DNA from: Eubacteriales bacterium | GTDB taxonomy: Bacteria > Bacillota > Clostridia > Oscillospirales > CAG-272 | Assembly (NCBI GenBank): GCA_045586105.1 | Contig: JAZMZS010000135.1 | Location: 1 to 38,446, forward strand | Reading direction: 5' to 3' | DNA length: 38,446 bases | Shown: piece by piece, positions 4,046-28,377 of the stretch | How positions within the stretch are numbered: the first letter of the stretch is position 1 | Layout of the letters: each line of letters begins with the position of its first letter | Notes under the pieces: generated by a model | Databases searched by the model: none | What the model was told of the DNA's origin: nothing | Seen by the model: the letters and a program-made list of their open reading frames with translations, nothing else | Program-made: the position numbers and the translations under genes

Positions 4046-4064
4046 CTAAAGGACGTTCACAACA

Positions 4065-8118: not shown

Positions 8119-8153
8119 AAATGAGCCTAACAGTAAATTACAGAGGTAACAAT

Positions 8154-12696: not shown

Positions 12697-12828
12697 CGAA
12701 TACTTCGTTTTTCGCATTCTCACAGACAGCATTTGTTTGTTATTCCGCATCTCACAGCCATGATCCTTAATGGCATATCCACGTTCAAAGCATAAATACA
12801 CACAAAAACTCTAACGGAGGCAATGAGA

Positions 12829-15800
12829 ATGAAAAAAAGCATGATCAGGCTCCTGTCGCTCTTTCTTTGCGCGGTAATGCTCGCCCCCTCTCTCTGCATC
12901 GCGGCTGCTTCGGATACAACCTGCAGAGCGGTCACTTCAAGCGAGACGGCGGTAGTATATCTGCGCGAGGGCGGTACCGGCGACGGAAGCACCGAGGCAT
13001 CCCCAATAGGAACGCTGTCGGCAGCGATGAAGGCGGCGGCAGCATACGGTGTCACGGCAAAGATACAGGTGATAGGCGAGTACCGAATGGACTTTGCCTC
13101 GGGGGCGTTTTCCTCTCCCTCGCACACTAATCTGATCGTGATCTCGGGCAAGGGGACTTACGGAAAGATATACGCAGACACCACAAACGGCGACTACGCA
13201 AAGTGGTATCTCAACGGGGACTTGCAGTTCGAGGATATCGAGCTTGGCTTTTTCCCGTGGCGCTTGTTTTTCATAACGCAGTTTCACGATCTGTATATGC
13301 TTGACGGCATCACGATGACGGAAGGCTCAAACAAGATCGGTATCATCCCCGCGATATCAAGCACGTCAAAGACCTTCGACGGCAAAAAATACAACGGCGA
13401 TTACAAGATAGTATTGCTGTCGGGCGTCTACGACGCCGTTACCCTGTTTGCTCAGGGAGGTGCCAAGGGCGACCTTGCAGGCGGCGTAACGCTGGTATTC
13501 GGAAACACGGCGGAGGCGTGGAGGATACACGTCTCGCACAAGATAGCCAAAAGCGTCGACCGCGCGCATATATACCTTGACGGAGGCGTCGTTCATACGG
13601 GCGTTGCTTACCACGATATTCCGAAGTCCACGACCGACGTCTCGGGGGTCGCCGGAGCGCGCGAAGACTTCAAGATAACGGTTACCGACAACTTTGATAT
13701 AGAAAACAGCTTCACCGTAGGATTCCCAAGCGACCCCGCAAGGTTCGGCGGGATCAGCGGGACGTCCGTTTACCTCGACGGAAGCGCCTGCGTCGGCAAC
13801 GAGGCTCTCGGAAGCTATACGATGGAGATCGAAACGGACGTCTACGACGACGTGACGGCGCACGTAAACGAGGATACCTTCGACGCAAACGGCATCAAGC
13901 GTATCAAGTCCGGAAGCGGACTTCCGCAGGGGCTTGTTCCCCCGTCTTGGGATGAGATGAGCTCACCCGAGAAATATAATTACGGGGACGTTAACGGCGA
14001 CGGAGAGTTCAACAACACGGATATTACGGAGCTTGTGCGCTTTCTCTCGGGCATAGAGGTAAGCGTCAAGGTTCCCGAGCGTGCGGACGTAGACCAAAAC
14101 AACAAAGCGAACAACAGGGACGTGATAGATATGATACTTTCAATAAACGGAATAAAGCCCTCGCCCGACAAGCGTTACTCGCCCGAGGATTACAGGATAA
14201 TATCAAAGGATGAATATACGGACAAGACCACGGCGGCGTTTCTCGGACAGCTCGCGGGCTTTTTGTCGGGACACGAGTTTGCAAAGGGCTCGGACGGCAA
14301 GTGCCTGGTCGCGATGCCGGACGAGAGATTCGTCTACCTCAGGGGTCCTTACGCCGTCGGTGCAAGACCCAAGCATATATATAACGAGGACTCGAAGCTC
14401 TGGGAGGTATGGTTTGACGACGATTTCTCGGTTGACGTTGTCAATCAGTATATTCTCGCGGATATGTATTACAATAAAGGCACCGTCTGCCAGAAGTACA
14501 TAACCGACGGCTGGCTCAACTACGACGTCTGGGACATGGGCGGAGGTCAGCGCAAGGTCGGCGCCTACGGGCTTTCAAAAAGATATAACTATCTGCCTCA
14601 GTTTTTGGGGAATACCGAGACTGAGAACTGGTACAGCTTTATAAGCGAGCCTTATCTCGGCACGGATACCCTCGGAATGAACGCCGCGGGAATGCCCGAG
14701 ACGGCAAGAGAGCTCGCCGCCGTGTTCTCGCAGGCAACGGGAGACAGGGATAATCTTCTTTTTGCGCAGATGTTCGCGGCGATGATATCGAGCGCGTATT
14801 TTGAGGACGACGTCGAGAGCGTCATCAGAGAAGCGTGCAAGGTGCTTCCCGAAGGCTCCTGGCCTACCTATATCGTAGAGGACGTTTTCGAGATCTATAA
14901 AAAGCACCCGAACGACTGGCGCGCGGGCTTTACCGAATATGAAAAGAAGCACTATATCGCGTCTGATATAACCTCCACCGCAGATACGGCGATAAACTGC
15001 GGCTTCGTTCTGCTCGAGCTTCTTTACGGTGAGGGAGATTATATGAAGACCTGCAAAATAGGCTCGCTTGCGGGCTACGATTGCGAGTCCACCTGCGGCA
15101 TCGCGCTTGCGGTGCTCGGCGTAATGGGCGGTACTTCGATCCTTCCCGAGGAGACGAACACCTACGTCTGGCAGGACGGAGAGGGGACTCTTGTCAACCT
15201 CGTAAACCCCGGATGTAAGAACGATCAGGGAGTCTGGATGATAGCGGCAGGTCTTCCTTCAAGAATGAAGATCAGCGAAATTATAGAGAAATACCGCGAG
15301 AACTTCGAGGCGGTGCTGCTTGAGCGGGGAGGTGCCGCCGACGCACATTATTACTATATTCCGCGCGAGGAGCTGCGCGGATACGATACCGTAAAGATAG
15401 AAAACGCACAGCTCGCGGACGGAACGCTCAACGGCTTTAGCGTAAAGGGAGAGGTAAGCGTCACGAAGTACGCATCGGTCAGCCACTACGGAGCAAGGCT
15501 TACGGGAAGCGCGGAGCTTTCACAGAGGGTAAGCGGACTCAAGATCGGAGAGACCTACGCTCTCAGCGCCTATATGAAGGCAACGGGAAGCTCAAGCGCG
15601 TATCTGTTCGTATCCTCCCCCGACGGCTCGGGTGCGGTGTGCGCTTCTGTTCACGCAACCGTCGGAACGCCCAAGTACGAAGCGCACAGCAGCTTCAAGC
15701 GCACGCTGTACTTTACCGCAACAGATACCGAAATGACGATCGGCGTCAGATATAACGGAGCGGACGGCGAGTACGCGGCGGCAGGCTCGTTTGAGCTTAT

Positions 15801-16161
15801 CCGCATAAGCGAGAAGCAAGTGGGCAGCGTAGGCGTTCAAAACGAAAAAGCAGACGGCGTCTACGAGGGCTCGTTCAGCCTTGATATAAACGGAGAGACC
15901 GATAAGGAGGTCTACCTCAAGCTCCGCTTTGCAAATCCGAACGATAAGGTCACGAACGTCGCCCTTACCGTAAACGGAACGAAGTACGCGACCGCGGCGT
16001 TCTATAAAACGAACCCCGCCGACGGCATGGAGAACGCCGATACTATATATATCCCGCTCGTTCTGTCGGTCGGAGAGAATACCGTAAGCGGAAGCTTCAC
16101 GGGAACGCTCAGCATCTTTGACGCAGAGCTGGTCGAGCGGACAGACCGCTTTGAGAATTAA
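12829..16161 (+). CDS. Secreted multidomain protein: beta-helix module + internal dockerin + ADP-ribosylglycohydrolase-like region (tentative) + two CBM-like beta-sandwich modules
   Basis: Signal peptide MKKSMIRLLSLFLCAVMLAPSLCIAAA. GGAGG lies 8 nt upstream of the ATG at 12829, whereas the ATG at 12823 is too close to it. Beta-helix head: VVYLREGGTGDGSTEASPIGTLSAAMKAA. Dockerin: GDVNGDGEFNNTDITELVRFL ... DVDQNNKANNRDVIDMILSI. ARH-like start KTTAAFLGQLAGFLSGHEF and end AGYDCESTCGIALAVLGVMGG lie about 300 aa apart. The C-terminus has CBM-like features (ENAQLADGTLNGF...; NVALTVNGTKYATAAFY). Confidence 0.78.
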   Translation: MKKSMIRLLSLFLCAVMLAPSLCIAAASDTTCRAVTSSETAVVYLREGGTGDGSTEASPIGTLSAAMKAAAAYGVTAKIQVIGEYRMDFASGAFSSPSHTNLIVISGKGTYGKIYADTTNGDYAKWYLNGDLQFEDIELGFFPWRLFFITQFHDLYMLDGITMTEGSNKIGIIPAISSTSKTFDGKKYNGDYKIVLLSGVYDAVTLFAQGGAKGDLAGGVTLVFGNTAEAWRIHVSHKIAKSVDRAHIYLDGGVVHTGVAYHDIPKSTTDVSGVAGAREDFKITVTDNFDIENSFTVGFPSDPARFGGISGTSVYLDGSACVGNEALGSYTMEIETDVYDDVTAHVNEDTFDANGIKRIKSGSGLPQGLVPPSWDEMSSPEKYNYGDVNGDGEFNNTDITELVRFLSGIEVSVKVPERADVDQNNKANNRDVIDMILSINGIKPSPDKRYSPEDYRIISKDEYTDKTTAAFLGQLAGFLSGHEFAKGSDGKCLVAMPDERFVYLRGPYAVGARPKHIYNEDSKLWEVWFDDDFSVDVVNQYILADMYYNKGTVCQKYITDGWLNYDVWDMGGGQRKVGAYGLSKRYNYLPQFLGNTETENWYSFISEPYLGTDTLGMNAAGMPETARELAAVFSQATGDRDNLLFAQMFAAMISSAYFEDDVESVIREACKVLPEGSWPTYIVEDVFEIYKKHPNDWRAGFTEYEKKHYIASDITSTADTAINCGFVLLELLYGEGDYMKTCKIGSLAGYDCESTCGIALAVLGVMGGTSILPEETNTYVWQDGEGTLVNLVNPGCKNDQGVWMIAAGLPSRMKISEIIEKYRENFEAVLLERGGAADAHYYYIPREELRGYDTVKIENAQLADGTLNGFSVKGEVSVTKYASVSHYGARLTGSAELSQRVSGLKIGETYALSAYMKATGSSSAYLFVSSPDGSGAVCASVHATVGTPKYEAHSSFKRTLYFTATDTEMTIGVRYNGADGEYAAAGSFELIRISEKQVGSVGVQNEKADGVYEGSFSLDINGETDKEVYLKLRFANPNDKVTNVALTVNGTKYATAAFYKTNPADGMENADTIYIPLVLSVGENTVSGSFTGTLSIFDAELVERTDRFEN

Positions 16162-16230: not shown

Positions 16231-16755
16231 TCAATTCGGTATACAAAGCTCGGAGATTATCCTTTTGACATTATCACACACGGATGCCGTTCCGTCAAGG
16301 CGTAGTACTTTGCAGCAGAGTGCATCCACCCACGCGTCTATACGGTCCGGCGTTTTATTGCGTGCGTGCTCATAAAAGCGTTCTTCCCGCTCGTACATAT
16401 CTCCGCCGGGCAATACCCTGCCGCCGAATCTATCTGCTGATCTCTGTTTTATTCTTTCCATCCTGATATCTAACGGAGCATCGAGATATACCACAAGCGA
16501 GTAATACGAGTTGATCTCTGCATTCATGTCCCCGTTAACTGCAGAAAATACAAAGCGCGGATGACGCTTTATATCTTCAAGAAGCAATTGCTCGGCCTCT
16601 GTCCGTGTTCTTGCAGAAGCATACGGATCATCGGAAGGTTTAAAATAATAATCTTCCACATCCATATGCTTATAGCCGATTTCCTTTGCAAGAGCGTCAG
16701 CAAGCGTCGTTTTTCCGCTTCCGTTCAGTCCGCAAATACATATGCCGTATCCCAT
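16231..16755 (-). CDS. P-loop NTPase, NMP-kinase-like small ATPase/kinase
   Basis: 174 aa. Walker A CGLNGSGKTTLADALA sits at the extreme N-terminus. Size and layout resemble nucleotide or small-molecule kinases. RBS GAAGGTGA. Its start lies 4 nt after the PHP stop. Confidence 0.75.
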   Translation of the reverse strand: MGYGICICGLNGSGKTTLADALAKEIGYKHMDVEDYYFKPSDDPYASARTRTEAEQLLLEDIKRHPRFVFSAVNGDMNAEINSYYSLVVYLDAPLDIRMERIKQRSADRFGGRVLPGGDMYEREERFYEHARNKTPDRIDAWVDALCCKVLRLDGTASVCDNVKRIISELCIPN

Positions 16756-16759: not shown

Positions 16760-17605
16760 TCACCTTCCCGCTCTTTCCTTCAAGGCGGCGTACACCTCGT
16801 AGGGGGTATAGAAGCCGTCTGTGGAGGAGAGGGATATCTCCGGCTTTCTGGTGCCGTGCCAATCACTGCCGCCGCTCTCGAGTATTCCGTGGCGGTGTGC
16901 CGTTTCACGGGCAAGAGCATGTGTCTTTGGCGAATACTTAGAGTAGTAGGTCTCCATTCCGTCGAGACCTGCTTTTTTTGCTTTCGGCAAAAAAAGCTCC
17001 AGTTGCTCCGGGGTAAGGCTGAGATAGGGGTGCGCGATAACTGCCGCACCGCCGAGGCTCTTGACGAGCGCTACCGTCTTTATCGCGTCGGGGCGCACGG
17101 GCGGGATATAAAACCCGCGTTTGGGCGAGAGAAGATCCGCAAAAGCCTCGGGAACGCTCGTCACCACACCGTGTGCCATCAGCGACTCGGCTATATGTGC
17201 ACGGTTGACGTTGCCGTGCTCCGAGCGGGCGTATATTTCTTCTATGCTGTCTATCGGGTATCCTGCTTTTTTGAGCGAAGCAACGAGCCTTAAGTTGCTT
17301 TCGTACTTGCTTTTGGCAAGCTCGGCGCAATGAGCACCTACCGCTTCTCTGTGATCCTCCCCGAGGAAAAGTCCGAGCATATGCACTTCACTTCCCTCGT
17401 ATTCGCAGGTAAGCTCCACGCCGCCGATAGTCTCTATTCCGAGCTCCTCTCCCGCGCGCAGAAATTCCCCGATGCCGTCCACGGTGTTATGGTCGGTGAG
17501 GGCGATCGCGCCGATGCCGTTTTTTTTCGCCTCTGCGGCAAGCTCACGCGGGGTGCAGGTGCCGTCGGAGAAGTTCGAGTGCGTATGAAGATCACATATC
17601 CTCAT
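16760..17605 (-). CDS. PHP-domain metal-dependent phosphoesterase (TrpH/YciV-like)
   Basis: MRICDLHTHSNFSDGTCTPRELAAEAKKNGIGAIALTDHNTVDG, later AHP and GGSDWHG. I prefer the ATG at 17605 over the ORF-track start at 17662. It lies 2 nt after the upstream TIM-barrel stop codon. Confidence 0.85.
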   Translation of the reverse strand: MRICDLHTHSNFSDGTCTPRELAAEAKKNGIGAIALTDHNTVDGIGEFLRAGEELGIETIGGVELTCEYEGSEVHMLGLFLGEDHREAVGAHCAELAKSKYESNLRLVASLKKAGYPIDSIEEIYARSEHGNVNRAHIAESLMAHGVVTSVPEAFADLLSPKRGFYIPPVRPDAIKTVALVKSLGGAAVIAHPYLSLTPEQLELFLPKAKKAGLDGMETYYSKYSPKTHALARETAHRHGILESGGSDWHGTRKPEISLSSTDGFYTPYEVYAALKERAGR

Positions 17606-17607
17606 TT

Positions 17608-18477
17608 TCAAAATTCCCCGAACATATCCGACAGGCGCTTTACTGCGGCTGCAAGATCGCAAATTCCGTCGTACATATTTTCAGCCGTCCTGTCCTTGAG
17701 GTAATTATCCGCTTCAAGGGTAAGGTAGCCGCGGTAATTATTCCTTCTCAGCGCATCTATCACAGCACCGAAGTCGATATCCATAGAAAACGGTATCTGG
17801 TGAGAATCGTGCAGCTTGTCGTTGTCGTGGATATGAAGAGCCTTTAGCCTGTGCCCGAGTGCGTCTATAAGCTCGGGGGCAGAGGTGTCAAGCCCTCTCA
17901 TCTCCGCGTGTCCTATATCGAGGCAGGCAACGAGGTATTCGTCATTCACCGCATCAAGATGTGCTACGAAGTTGTCGGGGCGTGAGCATGCGGCGGGAAC
18001 GGCGTGCCCCTCCTCGCGGTTCCAGTTCCACATATTCTCGGTAGCTATCTTTACTCCGTGCTCACGTGCAAACGGAAGCAGGGAGTAAAAGAACTCCGCG
18101 TTCTCCTCGGGTGTTCCGTTGTTTGCGGGGTGAACGATGCAGTACTCCGCACCGACCTCGGCTGAGCATTCTATCGCGCGTTTGAGATAGTCGCGCACGC
18201 ATCCGACGCTCGTAGGAAAGGGAGCGTGGGTCTGGTTGCATATTATCCCGTTGTCATCCGCAACGCGGCGAAGCCTGCGGACGTAGCTAAGATGATCCTT
18301 GCCGGCAAACGGGTGGTCGGTCGGCTTGAGAGCGCCCGTCGCCTTGTCGTACTTTGCCATTTCAAACATTGAAAGGTCGTAAGCGTCAAAGCCTGCGCGT
18401 GCGATATACTCTATAGTTCTCTCCTCACCGATCAGCTTGGAGGCGATCTCGGTCTGAGTGGATACTTTCAGCTTCAT
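17608..18477 (-). CDS. Sugar phosphate isomerase/epimerase (xylose-isomerase-like TIM barrel), copy 1
   Basis: 289 aa. Typical AP_endonuc_2-type pattern: FDAYDL..., HAPF, AEYCIVHP, KIATENM, ACLDIGHA, LHIHDN, YLTLE. Confidence 0.82.
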   Translation of the reverse strand: MKLKVSTQTEIASKLIGEERTIEYIARAGFDAYDLSMFEMAKYDKATGALKPTDHPFAGKDHLSYVRRLRRVADDNGIICNQTHAPFPTSVGCVRDYLKRAIECSAEVGAEYCIVHPANNGTPEENAEFFYSLLPFAREHGVKIATENMWNWNREEGHAVPAACSRPDNFVAHLDAVNDEYLVACLDIGHAEMRGLDTSAPELIDALGHRLKALHIHDNDKLHDSHQIPFSMDIDFGAVIDALRRNNYRGYLTLEADNYLKDRTAENMYDGICDLAAAVKRLSDMFGEF

Positions 18478-18499
18478 GGTTTTATCTCCTTATTCTGAG

Positions 18500-18527
18500 T
18501 ACCCCTCGGCAATATTGCCGAGGGGTA
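18500..18527. repeat. Perfect 28-bp palindrome (intercistronic stem-loop) between the unknown-family gene and TIM-barrel copy 1
   Basis: TACCCCTCGGCAAT|ATTGCCGAGGGGTA is exactly self-complementary. On the transcribed (minus) strand it is followed by ACTCAGAATAAGGAGAT (the next gene's RBS), not by a U-tract. Confidence 0.9.
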
Positions 18528-18535
18528 TGGTGTTA

Positions 18536-20407
18536 TTATTTTCCCGTATAGCCTGCGTCAAAGCAAGCAGTATCCATATTGCGCATGATCTCCATTCTGA
18601 AGGCACACGGCCATGCAACGAGCCACTGAGTAGGCGTAAAGAAGTCTCCGCCCGCGCGCATTCTCTCCCAGCGGCAATGGCAGATAGCCTCGTCCTGGCT
18701 TCCCGCAACGCGCGTTCTGCCGTTGATAACGAGGGTACCGTCAGAGATGAGCTGAGTTGCGTTTGCCCAAAAGGCACACGCACGGTCGAACCAGATCTTC
18801 TCTCCCGTAGCCTCCGAAAGCTTGACGAAGGACACTACGTCGTGAAGCGCATAGTGGTCAAGTCCGTTGTGCATCGTGGATACGCCCGTCGAGCCGAAGG
18901 TATCGAAGCCGATCTTGCCAAGGGTGCAAGTATCGTCGTAGATGCAGGAATAATGCCACTGCCAGGAGGATATGTAATAAGCGAGATTACGCGCCATATC
19001 GACGTATTCGCGCTTGCCCGTGACCTCGTAGAGTGCCATACACGCACCGAGCATGGGGGAAGCGGATTCCTTGTCTATCGAGTAGGTGTCAAGCGCACCC
19101 GCGGTGGTATATCCGTCACGGTCAAAGTCGCCGTAATAGAAGCCCATCGCGCGCTCCGCGCTCTCAAGATATTTTGCCTCTCCCGTGCGCTCGTATGCCT
19201 TAAGAAGCGGAGGAACGAGGAAGCATCCGACCGAGCCTGCCTTGGTCAGCAGCGAGCCGTCGGGCTTCCAGCTCTTGGCAAAGCAGCCGTCCGCATCCTG
19301 GTGTGCTACGGCAAAGTCGCATATTCCCATAGCGGCGTCGATACAGTCGGGGCGGTCTATACCGCACTTCGATAGAAGCTCGTAGGTCTCGAAGAAGTGA
19401 AGCGCTCCCGTGCCGAGGTTGCAGGCGTCGAGCTCGTCGTTTACCTTCTGTGCGGGGTCGGGCATGGTATTTGTACGAACGTACATAAGTCCGTTATCGA
19501 GGCGGCAATGTCCGAGCCACGAGTCTATGACCTTGAGCGCCTTGCTCTTGGCGTCTCGGTCTCCCGTCTCAAGGTGGTATTTGAGCAGGGCGTTGGCAAG
19601 AGAGATATTCTGTCCGCACCAGCCAAGCTCGTACTTGGTAGCAAACCAGCGCTTGACGTACTGCGTCTCCTGCGCCTTCCATTCAAGTCCTATAGAAAAG
19701 CCGCAGAAGCCGTCGGGCTCCTCGGTATAGAGGGTCTTTGCGTAGGTGATACCGAGCTTCCAGAGCTTTTTTGAATCAAAGAGGGAGGGGATGGGATGTG
19801 CGTAATACTCCCACGCAAAGTCGTAGAGCGCGTGCCAAGAATGGCGGGGCTTGGTCAAGGGAGCTGTGAAAATCACCGCAAAAAACTCGGTGCGGGGCTC
19901 CATCGTGAAGTAGTGCGCCTCCTTCATCCTCTGCTTGCAAAGTGCATAAGGAGACTCCTCCTCGGGCCAGATGAGGCTGTGGCGCATTCCCTCCTCGGTC
20001 GGATACTGAGAGAAGGACATTGCGATATCAAAGCCGCGGTCTGCCATCAGCGCCGCAGTGTACTTATCGCATTCGGAATACGAGCATGCGGGGATAGAAG
20101 TGCGGGAATAGGAATATATCCACGGCTTGCCCTCGCACTCGTAGCCCGAGTATTCAACACCCTTTCCCCAGCCGTTGCCGTTGTAGTTGAGGGCGGCTAT
20201 CTGGGTGTAGTTCACCTTTTGAAGTACGGTAAAGGACATATTCATTCTGTCCGTGGGAGTGTCGGTCACTCTCTTCCACGCGTATATTCCGTCCGCTATC
20301 ATCTCAAAGCTGTCTTGGGCACCCTCGCACGCTTCTACGCGCAGAAGGGGCGTTTCGTCTGCATAAAGAATATGCGAGCCGTCAGAGTATATTATCTTAC
20401 TTTCCAT
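18536..20407 (-). CDS. Cytoplasmic protein of unassigned family (N-terminal beta-rich region + C-terminal helical-repeat, alpha/alpha-toroid-like region); paralog of 26401-28377
   Basis: 623 aa with no signal peptide. RBS GGAGG lies upstream of the ATG at 20407. It shares collinear conserved blocks with the 26401 protein: WIYSYSRTSIPACSYSECD, ELGWCGQ, GIDRP, TAGALDTYSIDKES, YYISSWQWHY, GVSTMHNGLDHY, QDEAICHCRWER. Confidence 0.8.
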   Translation of the reverse strand: MESKIIYSDGSHILYADETPLLRVEACEGAQDSFEMIADGIYAWKRVTDTPTDRMNMSFTVLQKVNYTQIAALNYNGNGWGKGVEYSGYECEGKPWIYSYSRTSIPACSYSECDKYTAALMADRGFDIAMSFSQYPTEEGMRHSLIWPEEESPYALCKQRMKEAHYFTMEPRTEFFAVIFTAPLTKPRHSWHALYDFAWEYYAHPIPSLFDSKKLWKLGITYAKTLYTEEPDGFCGFSIGLEWKAQETQYVKRWFATKYELGWCGQNISLANALLKYHLETGDRDAKSKALKVIDSWLGHCRLDNGLMYVRTNTMPDPAQKVNDELDACNLGTGALHFFETYELLSKCGIDRPDCIDAAMGICDFAVAHQDADGCFAKSWKPDGSLLTKAGSVGCFLVPPLLKAYERTGEAKYLESAERAMGFYYGDFDRDGYTTAGALDTYSIDKESASPMLGACMALYEVTGKREYVDMARNLAYYISSWQWHYSCIYDDTCTLGKIGFDTFGSTGVSTMHNGLDHYALHDVVSFVKLSEATGEKIWFDRACAFWANATQLISDGTLVINGRTRVAGSQDEAICHCRWERMRAGGDFFTPTQWLVAWPCAFRMEIMRNMDTACFDAGYTGK

Positions 20408-20605: not shown

Positions 20606-21436
20606 TTATTTCCCGTGCTTTTTTTCCTCGGTAGGGGTATTTCCGTAATACTTTACGTACGCTCGGTAAAAGGTGGAGTAATCTCCGTATCCGCTCTCTT
20701 CAAACGCCTCAAGCGCCCCTGCGCCCGAGCGTAGCAGCTCCCTTGCGTATGACAGGCGCTTGGCGGTTATGTATTCTCCGGGAGAGGCTCCTGTTGCCCC
20801 CTTGAATATTCGGCAGAACTGCGACGGGCTCAGATAAAAGTGAGCGGCAAGCGCGGGAGTCGTCAGCCGTTGCTTCAGATGGTCATTTACGTACGCGACC
20901 ATCTCCTTCTCCCGGCTTGACGGCGGTAAGTCGGTCGTTCCCCTCGCTTCGTACGCGTCGCACAAAGCACCGAGAAGACAGATCAGGTTCGTCGTGATCT
21001 TAAGCTCCCGCCCATAGGCATCCCTCTCCGAATCGCACATCTCCTCAAACAGCCTGCGGATATGATGGTCTCCAAGCTCGGAGGAGGTGTAGACGTTGTC
21101 CTGTCCGAGCGAGCGCTCGGTGAAGGGCGCAAGAAGTCTGAGCTCGGGGTCGAAGCGCTCGACCAGCGATGCGGGAAAGTTGATATTGAATCTTTCGTAC
21201 GGGGTCGCTTCCAGAATCTTCGGCTTGTGTGACTCACTCGGACGGATGACGAGAATGCAGCCCGGGTAGAGCGCGTAGCTCGAGCCCTCAACGAGGTAGT
21301 TTACCTTTCCCTTGATAAACAGATATATTTCGTAGCTCCGATGAACGTGCATCGGAAAAGCGGCATCCTGCGGAACGTCGTCTATCGCGTGCTTGACGTA
21401 TATTCCGTTTTTTTTGTATTCGTTTAGCATATTCAT
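20606..21436 (-). CDS. AraC/XylS family transcriptional regulator (cupin + HTH)
   Basis: 276 aa. Cupin half: FPMHVHRSYEIYLFIKGKVNYLVEGSSYALYPGCILVIRPSESH. HTH half: LAAHFYLSPSQFCRIFKGATGASPGEYITAKRLSYARELL...GYGDYSTFYRAYVKYYGNTP. Confidence 0.88.
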   Translation of the reverse strand: MNMLNEYKKNGIYVKHAIDDVPQDAAFPMHVHRSYEIYLFIKGKVNYLVEGSSYALYPGCILVIRPSESHKPKILEATPYERFNINFPASLVERFDPELRLLAPFTERSLGQDNVYTSSELGDHHIRRLFEEMCDSERDAYGRELKITTNLICLLGALCDAYEARGTTDLPPSSREKEMVAYVNDHLKQRLTTPALAAHFYLSPSQFCRIFKGATGASPGEYITAKRLSYARELLRSGAGALEAFEESGYGDYSTFYRAYVKYYGNTPTEEKKHGK

Positions 21437-21493: not shown

Positions 21494-21522
21494 TTGAAAT
21501 GCGTTTTTATTTATTTTATACT
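21494..21522 (+). promoter_or_regulatory. Candidate sigma-A promoter of the TIM-TIM-esterase-oxidoreductase operon
   Basis: TTGAAA (21494-21499), a 17-nt spacer, then TATACT (21517-21522). It lies about 40 nt upstream of the ATG at 21566. Confidence 0.5.
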
Positions 21523-21565
21523 ATTAAGTAGAGAAATTATTTTTTTCAAGCGAAGGAGATACGGT

Positions 21566-22312
21566 ATGAATATTGGTGCACAGATGTACACGGTGCGCGA
21601 GCACTGCAAGACTCTCGAGGATCTTTCCCTCACTCTCAAGAAGCTCGCCGATATAGGCTACAGATACGTTCAGGTCTCGGGAACCTGCTCATACGACGCG
21701 GCTTGGCTTGACGCAGAGCTGAAGAAGAACGGACTTACCTGCGTCATTACGCACACCCCGTCAAAGGAGCTCACCGGAAATACAGACAAGGTAATAGCCG
21801 ATCACGGAATACTCGGATGCAAGTATATCGGCCTTGGATATTACGGATACGAAAACCCCGAGCAAAAGCTCGCATCCTTTCTCAACACCTACACGCCCGT
21901 AGCCGAGAAGATCGCAGAGGCGGGCAAGTACTTTATGTATCACCATCATGCGGCTGAATTCCAGAAGATAAATGGCAAGACCGTGCTCGAGCACATAGCG
22001 GACAGCATCCCCTCCTCGAAGCTCGGATTCACGCTTGACACGTACTGGGTGCAGACGGGAGGAGCAAACCCCTGCGACATGCTTGAGCTTCTCTCGGGAA
22101 GAGTCCCCTGCATACACCTTAAGGACTACGCGTTCGGTCAGAAGATGGCTGTGCTCGGAGAAGGCAACATCAACTTTGACCGCGTGTTCGTAAAGGCTGA
22201 GGAAGCCGGATGCGAATATATGCTCGTAGAGCAGGACGACTGCGGCGGAGAGGATCCGTTCGAGTGTCTTAGCCGCAGCTACGCCTACCTGAAGGCAAGG
22301 GGGCTTGAATAA
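21566..22312 (+). CDS. Sugar phosphate isomerase/epimerase (xylose-isomerase-like TIM barrel), copy 2
   Basis: RBS GAAGGAGA with the ATG at 21566 (MNIGAQMYTVREHCKTLEDL...). Supporting blocks: GYRYVQVSG, FMYHHHAAEF, FTLDTYW, IHLKDY, YMLVEQD. The ORF-track start at 21494 coincides with the -35 box. Confidence 0.83.
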   Translation: MNIGAQMYTVREHCKTLEDLSLTLKKLADIGYRYVQVSGTCSYDAAWLDAELKKNGLTCVITHTPSKELTGNTDKVIADHGILGCKYIGLGYYGYENPEQKLASFLNTYTPVAEKIAEAGKYFMYHHHAAEFQKINGKTVLEHIADSIPSSKLGFTLDTYWVQTGGANPCDMLELLSGRVPCIHLKDYAFGQKMAVLGEGNINFDRVFVKAEEAGCEYMLVEQDDCGGEDPFECLSRSYAYLKARGLE

Positions 22313-23136
22313 TGAGATTCAAGCTTTGTGCTTTTGCAGACGAGGCTGACAGCAGCATTGACAAGCAGATAGAAGCCATGCGCGACAACGGCATAGGTTA
22401 TCTTGAGATACGCGGAGTTGACGGTGAAAACATATCCGAGATTTCAACGGAAAAGGCGAAAGAAGTACGGAGAAAGCTTGACGAAAGCGGTATTTCCGTC
22501 TGGTCGCTCGGATCTCCCTACGGAAAGATCAAGATAACCGACCCTATCGAGCCGCACCTTGACAAATTCAAACGCGGTCTTGAGCTTGCCGATATTCTTG
22601 GGGCAAAAAACATACGCCTTTTCAGTTTCTTCGTACCTAAGGACGAGGCGGAAGCGTACTCAGACGAGGTCATGGACAGAATGAGCAAGCTCGTCTCGGC
22701 GGCAAAGGGAAGCGGCATTCTGCTCTGCCACGAGAACGAAAAGGGTATTTTCGGTGACGTAGCGGACAGATGCGCGCAGATCCACCGGACCTTCCCTGAG
22801 ATCTCGGCGGTCTTCGATCCCGCAAACTTCGTTCAATGCGGACAGGACACCGAAAAGGCCTGGGAGAAGCTCGCGCCTTTCGTAAAATATATGCACATAA
22901 AGGATGCTCTTCCCGACGGCAGCATCGTGCCTGCGGGCAAGGGCATGGGAAATATCCCGTGGCTGCTTGACAGATACGGGGGCGAGATACTTACTCTTGA
23001 GCCTCATCTGTCGGTATTCAAGGGTCTTGATGCTCTCGAGGGCGGCGAAAAAACGAAAATAGACGAATACAAGTACCCCTCTCAAAGAGCGGCGTTCGAT
23101 GCGGCGGTATCGGCGCTGAAGGAAATAATAGAATGA
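22312..23136 (+). CDS. Sugar phosphate isomerase/epimerase (xylose-isomerase-like TIM barrel), copy 3
   Basis: 274 aa. Supporting blocks: GIGYLEIRG, NIRLFSFF, LLCHENEKGIFGD, VFDPANF, MHIKDA, LTLEPHL. Its ATG overlaps the previous stop by 1 nt (TAATG). Confidence 0.83.
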   Translation: MRFKLCAFADEADSSIDKQIEAMRDNGIGYLEIRGVDGENISEISTEKAKEVRRKLDESGISVWSLGSPYGKIKITDPIEPHLDKFKRGLELADILGAKNIRLFSFFVPKDEAEAYSDEVMDRMSKLVSAAKGSGILLCHENEKGIFGDVADRCAQIHRTFPEISAVFDPANFVQCGQDTEKAWEKLAPFVKYMHIKDALPDGSIVPAGKGMGNIPWLLDRYGGEILTLEPHLSVFKGLDALEGGEKTKIDEYKYPSQRAAFDAAVSALKEIIE

Positions 23137-24200
23137 TAAATGACGAGCTGAAAAAGAGAGATCTCCCTCCGCTGAAGCGCCGTGAGGAAATGGCAGATAT
23201 ACTGCAGAAAAATGTATACGGATATTTGCCGAGGACGGAGTATTCGCTCACCTGCTCCGAGCCGAGATATATCGAACGAAGATACGCCTGCGGAAACGTC
23301 GCGTATTCGATAACGGAGCTTACCGTAACGGTAAAGAACGAGAGCCGTACCTTCAAGGTAGACAGGCTCCTTCACTGCGATGGCAAAAAGCGTCCCTTGG
23401 TGATAAACATAGCTTTTCATCCCCTGAGCAATTCGCAATACTTCCCAATTGAGGAAATGTCGGAATACGATGCGGACTTTCTCTCCTTCTGCTACAAGGA
23501 GGTGACGAGCGATGACGGCAATTTTGATGACGGGCTCGCTCCTCTGCTGACAAGCAAGGATGCACCCTGCGGAAAGCTCGCGATATGGGCGTGGGCGGCG
23601 CAGCGCGTGCTTGACTACGGGCTGACGCTCCCCGGCACGGACAGGAAAAACACCGCGGTCGCGGGACACTCACGCCTCGGCAAGACGGCGCTATTGTGCG
23701 CGATGACCGACGAGAGATTCAAATACGTTCTCTCAAACGCATCGGGATGTATGGGCGCGAGCCTCGCCCACGGAAGCACGGGAGAAGCATCGTCGGAGAA
23801 GGGCGCAGCGCGCCGGGAGAATTACCGCGATATAATAAAGAACTTCCCCTTCTGGTTCTCTCCCGAATTTGCAGATCACGCAACGGAAACCGTATCACCT
23901 CTGTTCGATCAGCATTATCTTGTCGCCGCGATAGCTCCGAGATTCGTGCTCGCAGGCTCGTGCAGCCTCGACGCGTGGGCGGACCCTCAGTCGGAGCAGC
24001 TCTGCTGTGCGGCGGCAAGCCCCGCGTGGGAGATGCTCGGAGAGGACGGCTTTATATGCGATCGGCTCGCTTCTCCCGGTGAGGCATTCTTATCCGGACG
24101 GGTCGGTTACTTCATGATAGAGTCGAAGCACTTTATGTCCCGCCACAGCTGGCGGCACCTCATGGATTTTATAGCTCTGCACAAAAATGAAAAAATATAA
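23133..24200 (+). CDS. Alpha/beta hydrolase resembling CE15 glucuronoyl esterase, no signal peptide
   Basis: 355 aa. VAGHSRLGKTAL resembles the CE15 nucleophile motif G-C-S-R-x-G-K (Ser codon 23670-23672). Later blocks: SLDAWADPQSE, and a late histidine context (IESKHFMSRHSW). ATGA overlap with the upstream gene. Confidence 0.6.
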   Translation: MINDELKKRDLPPLKRREEMADILQKNVYGYLPRTEYSLTCSEPRYIERRYACGNVAYSITELTVTVKNESRTFKVDRLLHCDGKKRPLVINIAFHPLSNSQYFPIEEMSEYDADFLSFCYKEVTSDDGNFDDGLAPLLTSKDAPCGKLAIWAWAAQRVLDYGLTLPGTDRKNTAVAGHSRLGKTALLCAMTDERFKYVLSNASGCMGASLAHGSTGEASSEKGAARRENYRDIIKNFPFWFSPEFADHATETVSPLFDQHYLVAAIAPRFVLAGSCSLDAWADPQSEQLCCAAASPAWEMLGEDGFICDRLASPGEAFLSGRVGYFMIESKHFMSRHSWRHLMDFIALHKNEKI

Positions 24201-24216
24201 TCAAGGAGATAAAAAA

Positions 24217-25386
24217 ATGGAAAAGATCAAGCTCGGTATCCTCGGCATGGGAAACATAGGCAGACTGCACCTTGATAACGTGCTCGGAGGACACTGCCCC
24301 TCGGTTGAGGTAAGCGCAGTATGCGATATTGACGAAAAGAAGCTCGGATACGCAAAAGAAAAGCTCCCCGATGCAAGGTACTTCAGCGACGCGATAGAAA
24401 TGCTCGATTCGGGCGCCGTTAACGCCGTTATCGTAGCAGTACCTCACTACGATCATCCCACCTACGCGATCGAGGCGTTCAAGCGCGGCATCAACGTAAT
24501 CATCGAAAAGCCCGCAGGAGTCTACACGCGTCAGGTAAGAGAGATGAACGAGGCTGCCGACCGTGCGGGAGTAAAATTCGGCATCATGTTCAACCAGCGT
24601 ACCGATCCTCTCTACGTAAAGGCGCACGAGATCGTACAGAGCGGACAGCTCGGCGAGCTCAAGCGCCTCGTATGGATAGTCACGAACTGGTACAGAACCC
24701 AGGCTTACTACGATTCGGGAAGCTGGCGTGCTACCTGGAACGGTGAGGGCGGCGGAGTTCTTCTCAATCAGGCTCCTCACAATCTCGATCTCTGGCAGTG
24801 GATATTCGGAATGCCCAAGCGCGTACGTGCGTTTTGTGAGCTCGGAAAGTACCACAACGTTGCGATAGAGGATGACGTTACCATCTTCGGAGAATACGAA
24901 AACGGCGCGACCGCTACCTTCATCACTACCACGGGCGAGGCTCCGGGAACCAACCGTCTCGAGATATCGGGCGACCGCGGAAAGATCGTGATCGAGGGCG
25001 GCAAGCTCAAATGGTGGAAGCTCGAGACTCCCGAAAGAGAGTTCTGCTACACCTGCAAAAAGGGCATGGCAATGCCCGCTACCACCTGCGAGGAATTCAC
25101 CTTCGACAGCGTAAACGGCCACGCCACGGTGCTCGAGACCTTTGCCCGTTCGATCATCGACGGAACTCCCCTGATAGCGGACGGACGAGAGGGTCTGAAT
25201 TCTCTCTCCATCTCGAACGCAGCGTATATCTCCACCTGGACGGGTAATTTTTCCGATATAAACGTCGACGAGGAGCTCTTCGAGCAGCACCTCAAGGAGC
25301 TCTGCGCAAGCGAGGTAGAAAAAAAGAAGGATTCGGAGCCCGAATCCCTCGAATCCCTGCGCGAGCGCTGGAAGGTAAGGTGGTAA
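24217..25386 (+). CDS. Gfo/Idh/MocA family NAD(P)-dependent oxidoreductase
   Basis: Rossmann start KLGILGMGNIGRLH and EKP motif NVIIEKPAG. C-terminal alpha/beta domain blocks: GGGVLLNQAPHNLDLWQWIFG, EDDVTIFGEYENGATATF. RBS AAGGAGA lies upstream of the ATG at 24217. The ATG at 24187 lies inside the preceding gene. Confidence 0.9.
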   Translation: MEKIKLGILGMGNIGRLHLDNVLGGHCPSVEVSAVCDIDEKKLGYAKEKLPDARYFSDAIEMLDSGAVNAVIVAVPHYDHPTYAIEAFKRGINVIIEKPAGVYTRQVREMNEAADRAGVKFGIMFNQRTDPLYVKAHEIVQSGQLGELKRLVWIVTNWYRTQAYYDSGSWRATWNGEGGGVLLNQAPHNLDLWQWIFGMPKRVRAFCELGKYHNVAIEDDVTIFGEYENGATATFITTTGEAPGTNRLEISGDRGKIVIEGGKLKWWKLETPEREFCYTCKKGMAMPATTCEEFTFDSVNGHATVLETFARSIIDGTPLIADGREGLNSLSISNAAYISTWTGNFSDINVDEELFEQHLKELCASEVEKKKDSEPESLESLRERWKVRW

Positions 25387-25436: not shown

Positions 25437-26231
25437 TCAATTATTCCTCGTTCTTCTCAGGTATTCCCTCGGGTTCATTCCCGTGTCCTTGAGAAAGGCG
25501 CGGTTGAAGGTCCGAATAGACGAAAACCCGGAGCCGAGCGCCGCGGCGGTGACGCTCTCTCCGTCCTCAAGCCTGGCGCACGCGTCCCTGATCCTCAAAT
25601 GATTGATAAAATCGTTGAACCTTACCTTCAGCTTTGACGAAAAGAAGCGTGAGATATGATAACGGTCGATATAAAGATCTCGTGACAGGGCGGCTAGCGT
25701 CAGAGGCGCTCTGAAATTCTTCATGCAATAATCAATAATACGCCGTTCCGTGGACGGAGCGCTCGACGGCGCGTCCTCAAGGGTAAGCATAGACAGTACG
25801 GTACTGAGAAGTACTGCAAAATACCCGCGCGCTATCTGTTTGTCGTAGAAGGTACGGCGGCGGTTATGCTCGTATATCCCTTCAAATGCCCGCAGCAGCT
25901 CTGCGGTCCTCCCGCCCGATCCGATCACGGGCTCGGCGGGGAGCTTGGATGCGAAGATCTCCGCGAGCGGCGGACATATATCGGCGGGAAACAGGAAGGT
26001 ATAGCAGCACAGATCTCTTTCGTTCGAGTAAGAGTGTATTCTGTTCGGGAAAGCAACGAACACGTCCCCCTCTCGAAGCTCGTATTCTGAAAAATCCACC
26101 GAAGCGGTGCAGCTGCCGCGAAGAACGGCGACGAGCTCCACGGTCTCGTGATAATGAGGGGGAAAATCGATATACTCCCTCTTCCACGTCAAAACTCTTC
26201 CCGTCTTTTCACTCTCATAAGTTACCGACAT
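25437..26231 (-). CDS. AraC/XylS family transcriptional regulator (cupin + HTH)
   Basis: 264 aa from the ATG at 26231 (RBS GGAGGA). Cupin half: YIDFPPHYHETVELVAVLRGSCTASVDFSEYELREGDVFVAFPNRIHSY. HTH half: LSRDLYIDRYHISRFFSSKLKVRFNDFINHLRIRDACARL...GFSSIRTFNRAFLKDTGMNPREY. The ORF-track extension to 26690 has no support. Confidence 0.88.
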   Translation of the reverse strand: MSVTYESEKTGRVLTWKREYIDFPPHYHETVELVAVLRGSCTASVDFSEYELREGDVFVAFPNRIHSYSNERDLCCYTFLFPADICPPLAEIFASKLPAEPVIGSGGRTAELLRAFEGIYEHNRRRTFYDKQIARGYFAVLLSTVLSMLTLEDAPSSAPSTERRIIDYCMKNFRAPLTLAALSRDLYIDRYHISRFFSSKLKVRFNDFINHLRIRDACARLEDGESVTAAALGSGFSSIRTFNRAFLKDTGMNPREYLRRTRNN

Positions 26232-26290
26232 TGTCTTATCCTCCGTTTGCATAAACGCAATAAATGGCCAAAACAATTTCACTATTTGTC

Positions 26291-26318
26291 TTGTATTATA
26301 GCACCAATCTGCTATAAT
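26291..26318 (+). promoter_or_regulatory. Candidate promoter for the second unknown-family gene
   Basis: TTGTAT (26291-26296), a 16-nt spacer, then the extended -10 TGCTATAAT (26310-26318). It is flanked by two copies of AAATGGCCA (26262-26270 and 26359-26367). Confidence 0.5.
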
Positions 26319-26400
26319 GTAAATACAAAACTGTTTTTCGGCGCTGTTTCTTTGCAAAAAATGGCCATTGTGTTTTATCGATAACGATAAGGAGATTCTT

Positions 26401-28377
26401 ATGACTAATGCTAAACATGCAAGGCTTGATCTTTTTACCCTCGACGCAACCAAAGCCTTAGAGCTGTGCGCACCCATTATAGAGGTGAACGGCAAGGAGC
26501 TGAGGATGTCTCCCGTATGCTCGGCAAAGCTCTCTGCCGAATACGAAGGACACGAGATGACAGCACGCGACGTTATCACTCCGATGGATGACGAGCTGTA
26601 TCTTCTCGAGCGCACCGTCACTAACGTGAGCCGCAGCACGCGCACCTTCAAGCTGATAACCGAGCTTGAGACCGCATACGCTCCGACCAAGTATAATATT
26701 CCCTGCGTAAGTTACGGCGGAAACGCCCGCTCGGACGGTAAGGAATACAAAGGCACCGAGCTTGACGGCGAGACGTGGATATACGCGTACGACAGAACGG
26801 GAATACCCTCGTGCACGGAGGCTGAGTGCGACGGGATCGTTACGGCAGTCTTTGCCTCCGAGAAAAGCGAGGATTCGCTGAGATCCTCATGTGCGTTCGT
26901 GTCTCTTCCCGACGGAAGGATGGCACACCGCATCTACTACCCCGTGACGGAGGCTCCTTACACCTACTGCGACCACGATATCATGTCTCCGAGATACGAC
27001 GAATATCTCACTCTCAAGCCCCGTGAAAGCTTTTCGGTCGTTTCCTATATCTATATAGGCAAGCCGAAATGGAAGAACTACGGCATGGCAAACGTGCTCG
27101 ACGCGGCGCTCGGACTGTATAACAACCTACGCGCTCCGTCCCTTTCACCCGAGGAGGTATGGGATACCTCTATCGCGTGGTCCGACTTTCTTCTCTGTGA
27201 TTATCACGGAGCGAAGATGTTCCGCAATATGTTCCGCCACGCAAAGGAGGGAGACGGTCTTTACGCTCCCTACGAGATCTTTGAGGCGGGATGGTCGGGA
27301 CAGTGCATGCAGCAGGCGAGAACGTTCATTCTCGAATACAAGCGCTCGGGCATCAAGCGTTATCTTGACGATGCGCTGTCCTGCCTTGACGCGTGGGTAA
27401 AAACGCAAAAGGACTGCGGGCTCTTCCCTACGAATTACGCAAGGCATATAAACGGCAAATACCTGCCAAACGACGTCTGCAACTATTCCTGGGGAGCGAT
27501 CGAGATGACCAGATCCTATTCTCTGTTGAAAGGTATCGGCATCGACCGTCCCGAATACGCTGACTTTGCCCGCAGGGTGCTTGATTTTCTCATTTCTCAG
27601 TACACAGACGAGGGAGGCTTCGGTCTTACATACACGGTGTTTGGAGAAAAGGTATCCGACGGCGGCTCGATCGGCGGCTTTACCTGCATGGCGCTCGTGG
27701 AATTCTACAAGCTCACGGGAGAGAGTCGTTACCTTGATATGGCAATACGCTCCTTTGATATGTACTTCAAGCGTGATCTTGACGATTTTATATGCACGGC
27801 GGGAGCTATCGACTGTGCCTGCATAGACAAGGAAACGGCATATCCCTTTATCTACACGGCGCTTGAGCTTTACGAGATAACGAAAGAGCCGATATATCTC
27901 GAGCGTGCCGAGAAGGCGGCGTACTACTTCTTCTCCTGGGCGTATCACTTCGACGCTCTGTACCCCGACGATTGTAACTTTAACGAATACGGCTACTACA
28001 CCTCGGGCGGCACTGCCGTATCTACCCAGCATCCCGCTATCGACCCGTGGGGTGAGATCGCGGTACCCGATTTCGTTAAAATAGCAAGATACACGGGTGA
28101 CGAGCGCTGGATAAAGCGTGCAAAGATGATGTGGAACAACGCGATCCTCTGTATCACCACGGACAAGGAGGGCGACGTCAAGCTTGGACACAAGCGCCCG
28201 TACGGTGCGCAAAGCGAGGCGTTCTTCCAGTGCAGATGGACAAGAAGCTACCGCCCCGACTGCGAGCAGCGCGGACACATAAACGACATGTTCGTGGGAT
28301 GGGTAAGTGCATACCGGCTCTCGGCGCTTGAGAGGATCACAAGGGTATGCCCCGAGGGAGCGGATCTTCTCAGATAA
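26401..28377 (+). CDS. Cytoplasmic protein of unassigned family; paralog of 18536-20407
   Basis: 658 aa from the ATG at 26401 (RBS AAGGAGA), with no signal peptide. Conserved blocks match the paralog: WIYAYDRTGIPSCTEAECD, EAGWSGQ, GIDRP, TAGAIDCACIDKET, YYFFSWAYHF, AVSTQHPAIDPW, QSEAFFQCRWTR. Confidence 0.8.
   Translation: MTNAKHARLDLFTLDATKALELCAPIIEVNGKELRMSPVCSAKLSAEYEGHEMTARDVITPMDDELYLLERTVTNVSRSTRTFKLITELETAYAPTKYNIPCVSYGGNARSDGKEYKGTELDGETWIYAYDRTGIPSCTEAECDGIVTAVFASEKSEDSLRSSCAFVSLPDGRMAHRIYYPVTEAPYTYCDHDIMSPRYDEYLTLKPRESFSVVSYIYIGKPKWKNYGMANVLDAALGLYNNLRAPSLSPEEVWDTSIAWSDFLLCDYHGAKMFRNMFRHAKEGDGLYAPYEIFEAGWSGQCMQQARTFILEYKRSGIKRYLDDALSCLDAWVKTQKDCGLFPTNYARHINGKYLPNDVCNYSWGAIEMTRSYSLLKGIGIDRPEYADFARRVLDFLISQYTDEGGFGLTYTVFGEKVSDGGSIGGFTCMALVEFYKLTGESRYLDMAIRSFDMYFKRDLDDFICTAGAIDCACIDKETAYPFIYTALELYEITKEPIYLERAEKAAYYFFSWAYHFDALYPDDCNFNEYGYYTSGGTAVSTQHPAIDPWGEIAVPDFVKIARYTGDERWIKRAKMMWNNAILCITTDKEGDVKLGHKRPYGAQSEAFFQCRWTRSYRPDCEQRGHINDMFVGWVSAYRLSALERITRVCPEGADLLR

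Follow-up and report, generated by a model that had tools for sequence, protein, structure and literature searches.

The characterised polysaccharide lyases (PLs) of family 27 are known from Bacteroides polysaccharide-utilisation loci. The PL27 L-rhamnose-alpha-1,4-D-glucuronate lyase, represented by BACCELL_00875 (PDB entries 5no8 and 5nok; 669 aa), targets plant arabinogalactan-type glycans. It consists of a beta-sandwich and an (alpha/alpha)6 barrel (PMC8377490). The same barrel is found without an N-terminal beta-sandwich in the AGE, GH88 and GH105 enzymes, which are cytoplasmic, measure approximately 370-420 aa and act on imported sugars, as well as in the single-domain, secreted alpha-1,6-mannanases of glycoside hydrolase (GH) family 76 (Aman6, BT2949, Lin0763). 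The intracellular GH94, GH65, GH15 and GH116 group has both domain types, in the order seen in PL27 and with N-domain loops that reach the active site, in proteins of 770-820 aa with extra domains. Here, two genes, A and B, from a 38,446-nt stretch of Eubacteriales DNA (contig JAZMZS010000135.1; hereafter the window) were compared with these systems. The encoded proteins belong to an unnamed, sizeable family with its own set of conserved residues, which is not categorically new and is placed by its predicted models in the six-hairpin glycosidase-like superfamily at the fold level. We consider the case evenly balanced for these proteins being cytoplasmic, exo-acting glycoside-cleaving enzymes, probably hydrolases, that act on imported plant-derived sugars. 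We lean slightly towards regarding A and B as founding-type members of a new family of GHs, PLs or phosphorylases, in which the beta-sandwich (N78, R102 and E151 in the numbering of A) and the barrel loops (D440, D445, E447, H513, D517 and E573) would together provide the catalytic apparatus and the paralogs would have diversified by the sugar released inside the cell (rhamnose, xylose, glucuronate or arabinose-linked). The original prediction had proposed an undescribed intracellular glycoside hydrolase or lyase family; the unnamed six-hairpin family, probably carbohydrate-active, stood, while the activity, the catalytic residues and the substrate class are inferred, and the choice between hydrolysis and beta-elimination is drawn from fold and gene context only. 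The two genes and their domains are as follows.

18536-20407, minus strand: gene of protein A (623 aa, 'A clade'), an open reading frame with its translation and a GGAGG ribosome-binding site before the ATG
19853-20407, minus strand: beta-sandwich of A, approximately aa 1-185
18548-19840, minus strand: (alpha/alpha)6 barrel of A, approximately aa 190-620
26401-28377, plus strand: gene of protein B (658 aa, 'B clade'), with an AAGGAG ribosome-binding site 7 nt 5' of the ATG; beta-sandwich at approximately aa 9-220, (alpha/alpha)6 barrel at aa 228-581, then a long C-terminal loop and a helix at 634-649

The coordinates of both open reading frames (ORFs) were borne out, and the minus strand of A, which had been omitted from the earlier account, was added: the frame of A is open on this strand only, and the plus-strand translation of 18536-20407 is full of stops. 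The claim that the two proteins are homologous along their whole length was confirmed by BLASTP, which aligned 616 residues at 29% identity (E 6e-76) and included every previously quoted block; their full-length paralogy is therefore real and far beyond chance. The hydropathy analysis did not indicate a signal peptide, a hydrophobic N-terminus or a transmembrane segment in either protein, the highest Kyte-Doolittle 19-residue mean being 1.26 for A and 1.14 for B, in agreement with the original statement that neither copy carries a signal peptide. In contrast, the neighbouring solute-binding protein (SBP) and GH43 protein had clearly hydrophobic N-termini in the same analysis.

AlphaFold2 models were obtained for A (pLDDT 82.7, pTM 0.86; alignment of 25 sequences) and B (pLDDT 95.3, pTM 0.95; 58 sequences). 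Both models contained an N-terminal beta-sandwich of approximately 185-220 residues, followed by twelve helices arranged in six hairpins and by a C-terminal loop and helix, which is the combination of a beta-rich N-domain and an alpha/alpha toroid that had been foreseen from the sequence. Upon comparison with the PDB (to April 2026) using Foldseek, all the significant matches were carbohydrate-active six-hairpin enzymes (PL27, GH76, GH94, GH116, GH88 and AGE epimerase), and the twelve-helix barrel matched many members of the six-hairpin glycosidase-like superfamily with a Foldseek probability of 1.00. No full-length PDB match above a TM-score of 0.45 was found for either model. The top match of both was the PL27 enzyme 5no8 (E 1e-11 for A and 9e-14 for B), aligned across both domains at a TM-score of 0.44-0.45 and 10-12% identity, and it was followed by GH76, AGE-type epimerases/isomerases, GH88, GH94 phosphorylases and GH116.

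The rank of 5no8, the identical succession of beta-sandwich and (alpha/alpha)6 barrel (PMC8377490) and the similar protein length are consistent with a PL27-like, beta-eliminating lyase, which would split a neutral sugar, e.g., L-rhamnose, off a uronic acid, the latter ending up as a 4,5-unsaturated uronate. We regard this reading as unlikely. The TM-score and the identity given above are low, and neither 5no8 nor 5nok was detected by the HMMER profiles of the family (A1 and A2) against all PDB chains up to an E-value of 10. Membership of PL27 was thus rejected at the level of sequence, where similarity is undetectable though the architecture matches, and the A/B family further differs from PL27 in being cytoplasmic and clostridial. 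The GH94 cellobiose and chitobiose phosphorylases, which have the same domain layout, formed the second-best Foldseek group for B (E approximately 1e-10; approximately 1e-9 to 1e-10 for GH94, GH65, GH15 and GH116 together). An inverting glycoside phosphorylase (GH65/GH94/GH149/GH161-like), converting an imported di- or oligosaccharide and phosphate to a sugar-1-phosphate, would suit these matches as well as the cytoplasmic site beside an SBP, which is the classic phosphorylase setting; its probability appears low. The TM-score was 0.31-0.36 (0.3-0.36 for the wider group) and the rmsd approximately 24 Å, so the GH94 match reflects common domain types and not a close superposition; no match to the GH65 or GH94 models was obtained in the Pfam and NCBIfam scans of A and B, and no sequence similarity to the wider group was detected.

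When scores were normalised to the target, the barrel gave higher values, namely 0.67-0.69 for the GH76 chain and approximately 0.6-0.67 for the AGE, GH88 and GH105 enzymes. The values for the AGE structures are in line with an AGE-type isomerase or epimerase acting on a free sugar or disaccharide without cleavage (N-acylglucosamine 2-epimerase, cellobiose 2-epimerase, or mannose or sulfoquinovose isomerase). Weak Pfam and NCBIfam matches to GlcNAc_2-epim and EpiA, a single homologue labelled 'AGE family epimerase/isomerase' and the TIM-barrel isomerase-like proteins and dehydrogenase among the window neighbours point in the same direction. AGE enzymes comprise one domain of approximately 400 aa, and their activity depends on two catalytic His residues and an Arg. 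The two-domain A/B proteins, of 620-690 aa, have H513 as their sole near-universal His (80/93 sequences; H143 is kept in 57/93), their extra beta-sandwich supplies near-universal residues, and the tandem arrays in which they occur are unusual for isomerases. The profile scores also fell far short of the respective cut-offs (16.8 bits versus 23.4 for PF07221, and 18.2 bits versus 800 for EpiA). AGE membership was rejected on these grounds, and we consider an AGE-type activity very doubtful.

The term 'undescribed' is used here for absence from Pfam-A (2025), NCBIfam 20.0, the PDB (2026) and literature searches, the last of which turned up no newly described GH family matching A or B. Protein A remained under every Pfam cut-off. 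Protein B exceeded the cut-off for PF03663 (GH76; 31.6 bits versus 25.9), over profile positions 75-268 of 366 only, and was just over the cut-off for PF07944 (GH127; 27.1 bits), over profile positions 180-252 of 376 only, i.e., 73 positions corresponding to a generic TGxxxYL hairpin. The corresponding scores for A were 15.1 bits (GH76) and 16.1 bits (GH127; profile positions 184-202). The GH88 and GH105 enzymes are unsaturated uronyl hydrolases, whose conserved catalytic Asp protonates the C4=C5 double bond; their model PF07470 scored 15.5 bits versus a cut-off of 26.6, and PDB chains of UGL matched at E 1e-4 to 1e-3 across approximately 65-95 residues only. The NCBIfam search of A and B gave nothing meaningful, and the direct single-sequence PDB search with A gave nothing relevant. 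In the PDB sequence and profile searches, GH76 was the only strong match (E approximately 5e-9 over approximately 77 residues), with weaker matches to GH88, cellobiose 2-epimerase, LanC-like proteins and GH105.

The GH76 mannanases are thus the best matches at the level of sequence, and 'Y-x-x-T-G-x-x-x-Y-L' hairpins are common to both families, but the likeness is limited to approximately 77-190 residues of the hairpin motif. The catalytic dyad of GH76 corresponds to D124/D125 in Aman6 of Bacillus circulans, two consecutive residues at the N-terminus of an inner helix. In the A/B family this Asp-Asp pair was missing in both possible alignment registers, and membership of GH76 was rejected. 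In the Aman6 register, the HMMER alignment begins past the dyad, and the nearly invariant G391-x-x-G394 falls at its position if the GH76 motif is, as we take it to be, correctly placed; in the Lin0763 register, the two Asp residues of 'FYDDMLW' stand opposite a gap and Asn361 of B, beside Cys360. In HypBA1 of GH127, zinc is bound by E338, C340, C417 and C418, which include the Cys nucleophile, and the N-terminal barrel is followed by beta-sandwich domains. Membership of GH127/GH146 was also rejected, as the A/B family has neither a Cys-Cys pair nor a Cys3-Glu set and its domain order is reversed, with the beta-sandwich first. A relationship to GH78 was dismissed after family profile A2, compared by hhalign with the GH78 protein that is encoded beside a family member in locus L034, gave a probability of 0.4%. 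In view of the failed tests for GH76, GH127, AGE, GH78 and PL27, A and B were rated as members of an unnamed family on a known fold. The original prediction could name no family for the pair, and this remained so: the Pfam, NCBIfam and PDB searches returned partial or sub-threshold matches only, and none of them placed either protein confidently in a characterised family.

The conservation of individual residues was evaluated in 93 sequences (91 full-length representatives of 50% identity clusters, together with A and B), aligned to the family HMM with hmmalign; the numbering is that of A. The most strongly kept polar residues were N78 (90/93), R102 (89), E573 (89), D440, D445 and E447 (88 each) and E151 (87), followed by Q571 (85), D517 (83), T507 (82), H513 (80) and K446 (76). 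The aromatic residues Y424, W482, W539 and W580 were near-universal. In both models, the barrel residues of this set were located in the long loops before helices 3, 5, 7, 9 and 11 and before the C-terminal helix, while the opposite end of the barrel has short loops. As the long-loop end forms the active-site funnel in six-hairpin enzymes, the conserved set is expected to lie on the catalytic face and not in the protein core, and the origin of N78, R102 and E151 in the beta-sandwich implies that the N-domain helps to build the site.

The original prediction had pointed to the Cys and Glu residues of an IPxCxxxEC block as a possible catalytic or metal site. A and B share Cys108, Cys113 and Cys329, the Cys and Glu residues of the block are the same in the pair and its close relatives, and Cys108 and Cys329 are invariant in the 23 relatives of alignment A1, but this conservation did not extend to the family as a whole, in which Cys108 and Cys329 are the only Cys residues kept to a reasonable degree: Cys108 was present in 41/93 sequences (Ala in 39), Cys113 in 3, Cys329 in 63 and Glu112 in 70. 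Cys108 and Cys329 did not strictly co-vary either, with 43 proteins having Cys329 only and 14 having Cys108 only. Thiol or metal chemistry at these positions, whether GH127-like, with a zinc-held Cys nucleophile, or LanC-like, would be in line with the identity of the three Cys residues in the pair, the weak GH127 match of B, a likewise weak LANC_like match in one remote member and the register in which Cys360-Asn361 of B occupies the place of the GH76 Asp-Asp pair. Given the family-wide counts, the missing Cys-Cys pair and Cys3-Glu set and the short span of the GH127 match, we regard such chemistry as highly improbable.

Acid/base hydrolysis by the A/B family would instead involve D445 or E447 (D476 or E478 in B), located in the loop before helix 9, paired with E573 (E606 in B) in the loop after helix 12, while the rest of the sugar-binding pocket, including the shape of the -1 subsite, would be provided by H513, D517 and, from the beta-sandwich, N78, R102 and E151. 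The same inventory can be read in other ways. The near-universal Asn78, Arg102, Tyr424, Lys446, His513 and Gln571 are residue types of toroid lyases, and PL5, PL8, PL15 and PL17 use such residues for charge neutralisation and proton transfer, which favours a PL27-like lyase; however, with its six near-universal carboxylates, the presumed site is more like that of a hydrolase, and a uronate would be repelled from it. Similarly, the conserved R102, H513, T507, S510 and Q571 could bind phosphate in a phosphorylase.

Homologue searches of a 5.8-billion-protein collection returned 899 sequences for A and 189 for B, essentially all of them unnamed or annotated as 'hypothetical protein', apart from the single AGE label mentioned above. 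A profile search of a library of 1.84 billion representatives gave at least 227 clusters at 50% identity (E <= 1e-30), and relatives were encoded by 376 stretches in 185,579 species genomes. Among the best 80 of these 376 stretches, 79 belonged to metagenome-assembled genomes (MAGs) of uncultured gut or rumen Clostridia (Eubacteriales, Oscillospiraceae, Acutalibacteraceae and some Lachnospiraceae), and the 80th (L053) was labelled 'uncultured thaumarchaeote'; a Victivallis record was present among the relatives of B. Even remote family members lacked a Pfam family assignment, and a homologue search for named relatives starting from the remote member P0243 recovered the query itself only. As judged from their sequences, A and B represent two deep, anciently diverged clades. 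Several MAGs had three or more loci, and tandem arrays of two to four A-clade paralogs with 59-83% identity were found. By analogy, such multi-copy expansion and tandem arrays suggest a specificity-diversifying family of carbohydrate-active enzymes (CAZymes), for which they are typical. In one relative (L006-L008), an A ortholog (70% identity) directly adjoins a B ortholog (69%), followed by the same SBP and GH43 genes. An obligate A-B heteromer, as this adjacency might suggest, was rejected, since in L089 and L090 no A-type gene adjoins the B ortholog and A-type genes are mostly alone or in A-type arrays.

The genomic surroundings of the family were determined in 89 sources (88 loci and the window), in which genes were called by a codon-usage log-likelihood model and then clustered. 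A recognised carbohydrate gene was found no more than three genes from the family gene in at least 31 of 78 loci, a lower bound given that most singleton neighbours are unannotated; a GH43 gene lay within the same distance in 8 of the 78. AraC-family regulators and ABC sugar permeases or SBPs were also frequent near family genes. In several loci, the family gene followed or adjoined genes for the catabolism of a particular sugar. In L034, the order was GH78, FGGY kinase, L-rhamnose isomerase (1e-180), class II aldolase, family gene and GH43. In L027, an AraC gene was divergent from an FGGY kinase gene, followed by a 450-aa gene with a sub-threshold AP_endonuc_2 match (E 6e-6), which from its sequence may be a xylose isomerase, and by the family gene. 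In L083, the family gene was preceded by the mannonate dehydratase gene uxuA (2e-123). In L068, it stood at the end of a series comprising a short-chain dehydrogenase, a flavoprotein, an IlvD/Edd-type dehydratase, an unknown gene and aldose 1-epimerase (mutarotase), and in L053 it followed a large GH43 gene and an aldose 1-epimerase gene. A mutarotase gene or a monosaccharide catabolic operon directly in front of the gene for a cytoplasmic six-hairpin protein is the mark of an enzyme releasing a free monosaccharide, and the variety of catabolic pathways matches the expansion of paralogs. The co-occurrence with Gfo/Idh/MocA and TIM-barrel genes, which had been singled out for survey, recurred in three other loci (L021, L068 and L086), where a convergent TIM-barrel and Gfo/Idh/MocA pair with an AraC gene is located next to family genes.

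These contexts also bear on the competing activities. The rhamnose genes of L034, uxuA in L083 and a CE15-like esterase gene in the window would fit a PL27-like lyase, but genes of the KduI/KduD type, which would handle an unsaturated uronate, were not seen among the annotated neighbours, and the contexts with a mutarotase or with a xylose-isomerase-like gene and FGGY kinase (L027) imply no uronate. As to a phosphorylase, a phosphosugar mutase gene was not consistently adjacent, the sole HAD/PMM-like gene being in a separate operon, and the mutarotase genes directly upstream in L068 and L053 imply a free reducing sugar as the product. In the hydrolase reading, a family member would cleave, in an exo manner, a glycosidic bond of an imported plant-derived oligosaccharide or glycoside, and the free monosaccharide would pass to dedicated catabolic enzymes, with different paralogs having different sugar specificities.

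Several observations weigh against cytoplasmic glycoside hydrolysis as the function of A and B. The best structural match (PL27) is a lyase and not a hydrolase. The placement of the conserved set on the expected catalytic face, although in accordance with the earlier expectation that these residues would not map to the protein core, is inferred from topology (model secondary structure and conservation). The acidic D440/D445/E447 cluster may instead be a metal-binding loop. Approximately half of the family genes appear monocistronic, often amid unrelated or housekeeping genes. A recurrent operon with no evident connection to sugars precedes one or more family genes in eight loci (L015, L017, L047, L051, L064, L081, L086 and L087); it contains, e.g., in L015:5969-9960, a divergent AraC gene, a gene for a 345-aa protein without Pfam match and three paralogous genes for 313-aa Fer4_16-like Fe-S proteins, which are QueG/reductive-dehalogenase-like, sometimes a small cupin gene, and a gene for a YgjV membrane protein. 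Finally, the window neighbours of A were not kept around its close ortholog (79% identity), so that nothing specific can be transferred from them to A.

The family is relevant to the annotation of uncultured Oscillospirales-type Clostridia, which are major fibre degraders of the human gut and rumen and much of whose glycan-processing machinery is unannotated. The family has at least 227 clusters, many MAGs have three or more copies of it, and up to four of its genes stand in one array; all the annotation pipelines checked missed it. If its members do cleave glycosides, current CAZyme counts for these organisms are too low and the six-hairpin scaffold would carry a new catalytic solution. The operon contexts provide testable substrate hypotheses for particular paralogs (rhamnose genes, xylose-isomerase-like gene with FGGY kinase, uxuA, mutarotase, or SBP with surface GH43 protein), and the conserved unit of AraC, B and SBP genes is a compact system for finding an inducer and a substrate.

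An AraC gene adjoins each of the two copies, as the original prediction had stated. Around B, the following genes were identified in the window.

25437-26231, minus strand: AraC-family regulator divergent from B, 264 aa (Pfam HTH_18 and AraC_binding)
28592-30106, plus strand: solute-binding lipoprotein of 504 aa, directly after B, with a weak SBP_bac_1 match and a lipobox-type N-terminus
30146-34255, plus strand: surface GH43 protein of approximately 1369 aa, bearing a signal peptide and, at its C-terminus, a membrane anchor (Pfam GH43 8e-27)

The AraC ORF as first delimited (25437-26690) is over-extended onto the start of B; the likely start is ATG 26231, which is preceded by GGAGG, and not TTG 26690. 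A promoter-like site with 11/12 matches is located 5' of the AraC gene at 26323-26295 on the minus strand, and the sequence thus indicates a candidate 169-nt divergent control region common to AraC and B. The order of a divergent AraC gene, B and then the SBP gene was kept in B orthologs, with or without the surface GH43 gene: B was followed by the SBP gene in L006, L089 and L090, AraC was also divergent from B in L089, and an ortholog of the surface GH43 gene was found behind B and the SBP gene in L090 and L006. No permease genes adjoin the SBP gene of the window. The GH43 domain of the surface protein comprises residues 963-1267 of the 1380-aa ORF counted from the upstream TTG 30113 and is nearest to the alpha-L-arabinofuranosidases 5m8e and 3akf, whereas the N-terminal part of approximately 920 aa, with 'INGGTF'-like repeats, gave no match in Pfam, NCBIfam or the PDB. 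Extracellular products generated by this protein are probably taken up by the SBP. On this proposal, the surface-anchored GH43 protein would trim an arabinose-containing polymer, the adjoining lipoprotein would capture the product for ABC import, cytoplasmic B would then cleave it, and control of the unit would fall to the divergent AraC regulator. Proteins homologous to the surface protein and of comparable size are encoded alongside family genes in L050, L053 and L090.

The surroundings of A and the region between A and B contained the following features.

20606-21436, minus strand like A: AraC-family regulator whose gene immediately precedes A (Pfam HTH_18 4.7e-19, AraC_binding 1e-12)
18499-18528: hairpin formed by a perfect, GC-rich 13-bp palindrome, with the stop codon of A on one side and the ribosome-binding site of the following gene on the other
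17608-18477, minus strand: TIM-barrel protein of 289 aa, xylose-isomerase-like (Pfam AP_endonuc_2 1e-27); its gene lies 58 nt downstream of A and has a separate AAGGAG site
16760-17662, after the TIM-barrel gene: PHP phosphoesterase (Pfam PHP 1.3e-16)
16231-16755, after the PHP gene: small P-loop kinase-like protein (Pfam AAA_18/SKI)
21494-25386, plus strand: four-gene cassette between A and B, encoding two AP_endonuc_2 TIM-barrel proteins, a CE15-like glucuronyl esterase and a Gfo/Idh/MocA oxidoreductase (Pfam, NCBIfam)

The hairpin is not followed by a T-run on the minus (coding) strand; its sequence would suit a role in processing or stabilisation or as a partial terminator, and the TIM-barrel gene is a possible operon partner of A. 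In NCBIfam, the genes downstream of A had weak sub-threshold matches only. The CE15-like glucuronyl esterase (23133-24200, plus strand; Pfam GCE_fung 1e-24) is without a signal peptide, and its gene stands between the two TIM-barrel genes and that of the Gfo/Idh/MocA oxidoreductase. CE15 enzymes are normally secreted, and a cytoplasmic one would be unusual.

Further observations concern other family loci and the remainder of the window. In eight loci (L001, L012, L013, L016, L022, L026, L038 and L078), a conserved block of genes for a Yip1-domain protein, a DUF5696 protein of approximately 1010 aa and two ABC sugar permeases closely precedes a CBS-domain gene and a family member; DUF5696 itself is uncharacterised. 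The GH3 protein encoded at 34400-38329 (plus strand; 1309 aa) is permuted, with the GH3 C-domain (aa 52-312) and an Fn3-like domain preceding the GH3 N-domain (aa 541-732). Two dockerin-bearing proteins are encoded on the plus strand at 8121-10241 and 12823-16161 and suggest a cellulosome-type organism. The first is BNR_2 sialidase-like with a C-terminal dockerin, and BNR_2 homologues adjoin family genes in L031, L085 and L088; the second (1112 aa) combines an internal dockerin (aa 387-434) with an ADP-ribosylglycohydrolase domain. The left part of the window (2837-6346, plus strand) contains yidC, jag (KhpB-like) and mnmE, an arrangement usual near the chromosomal replication origin. The GC content of the window is 52.7%.

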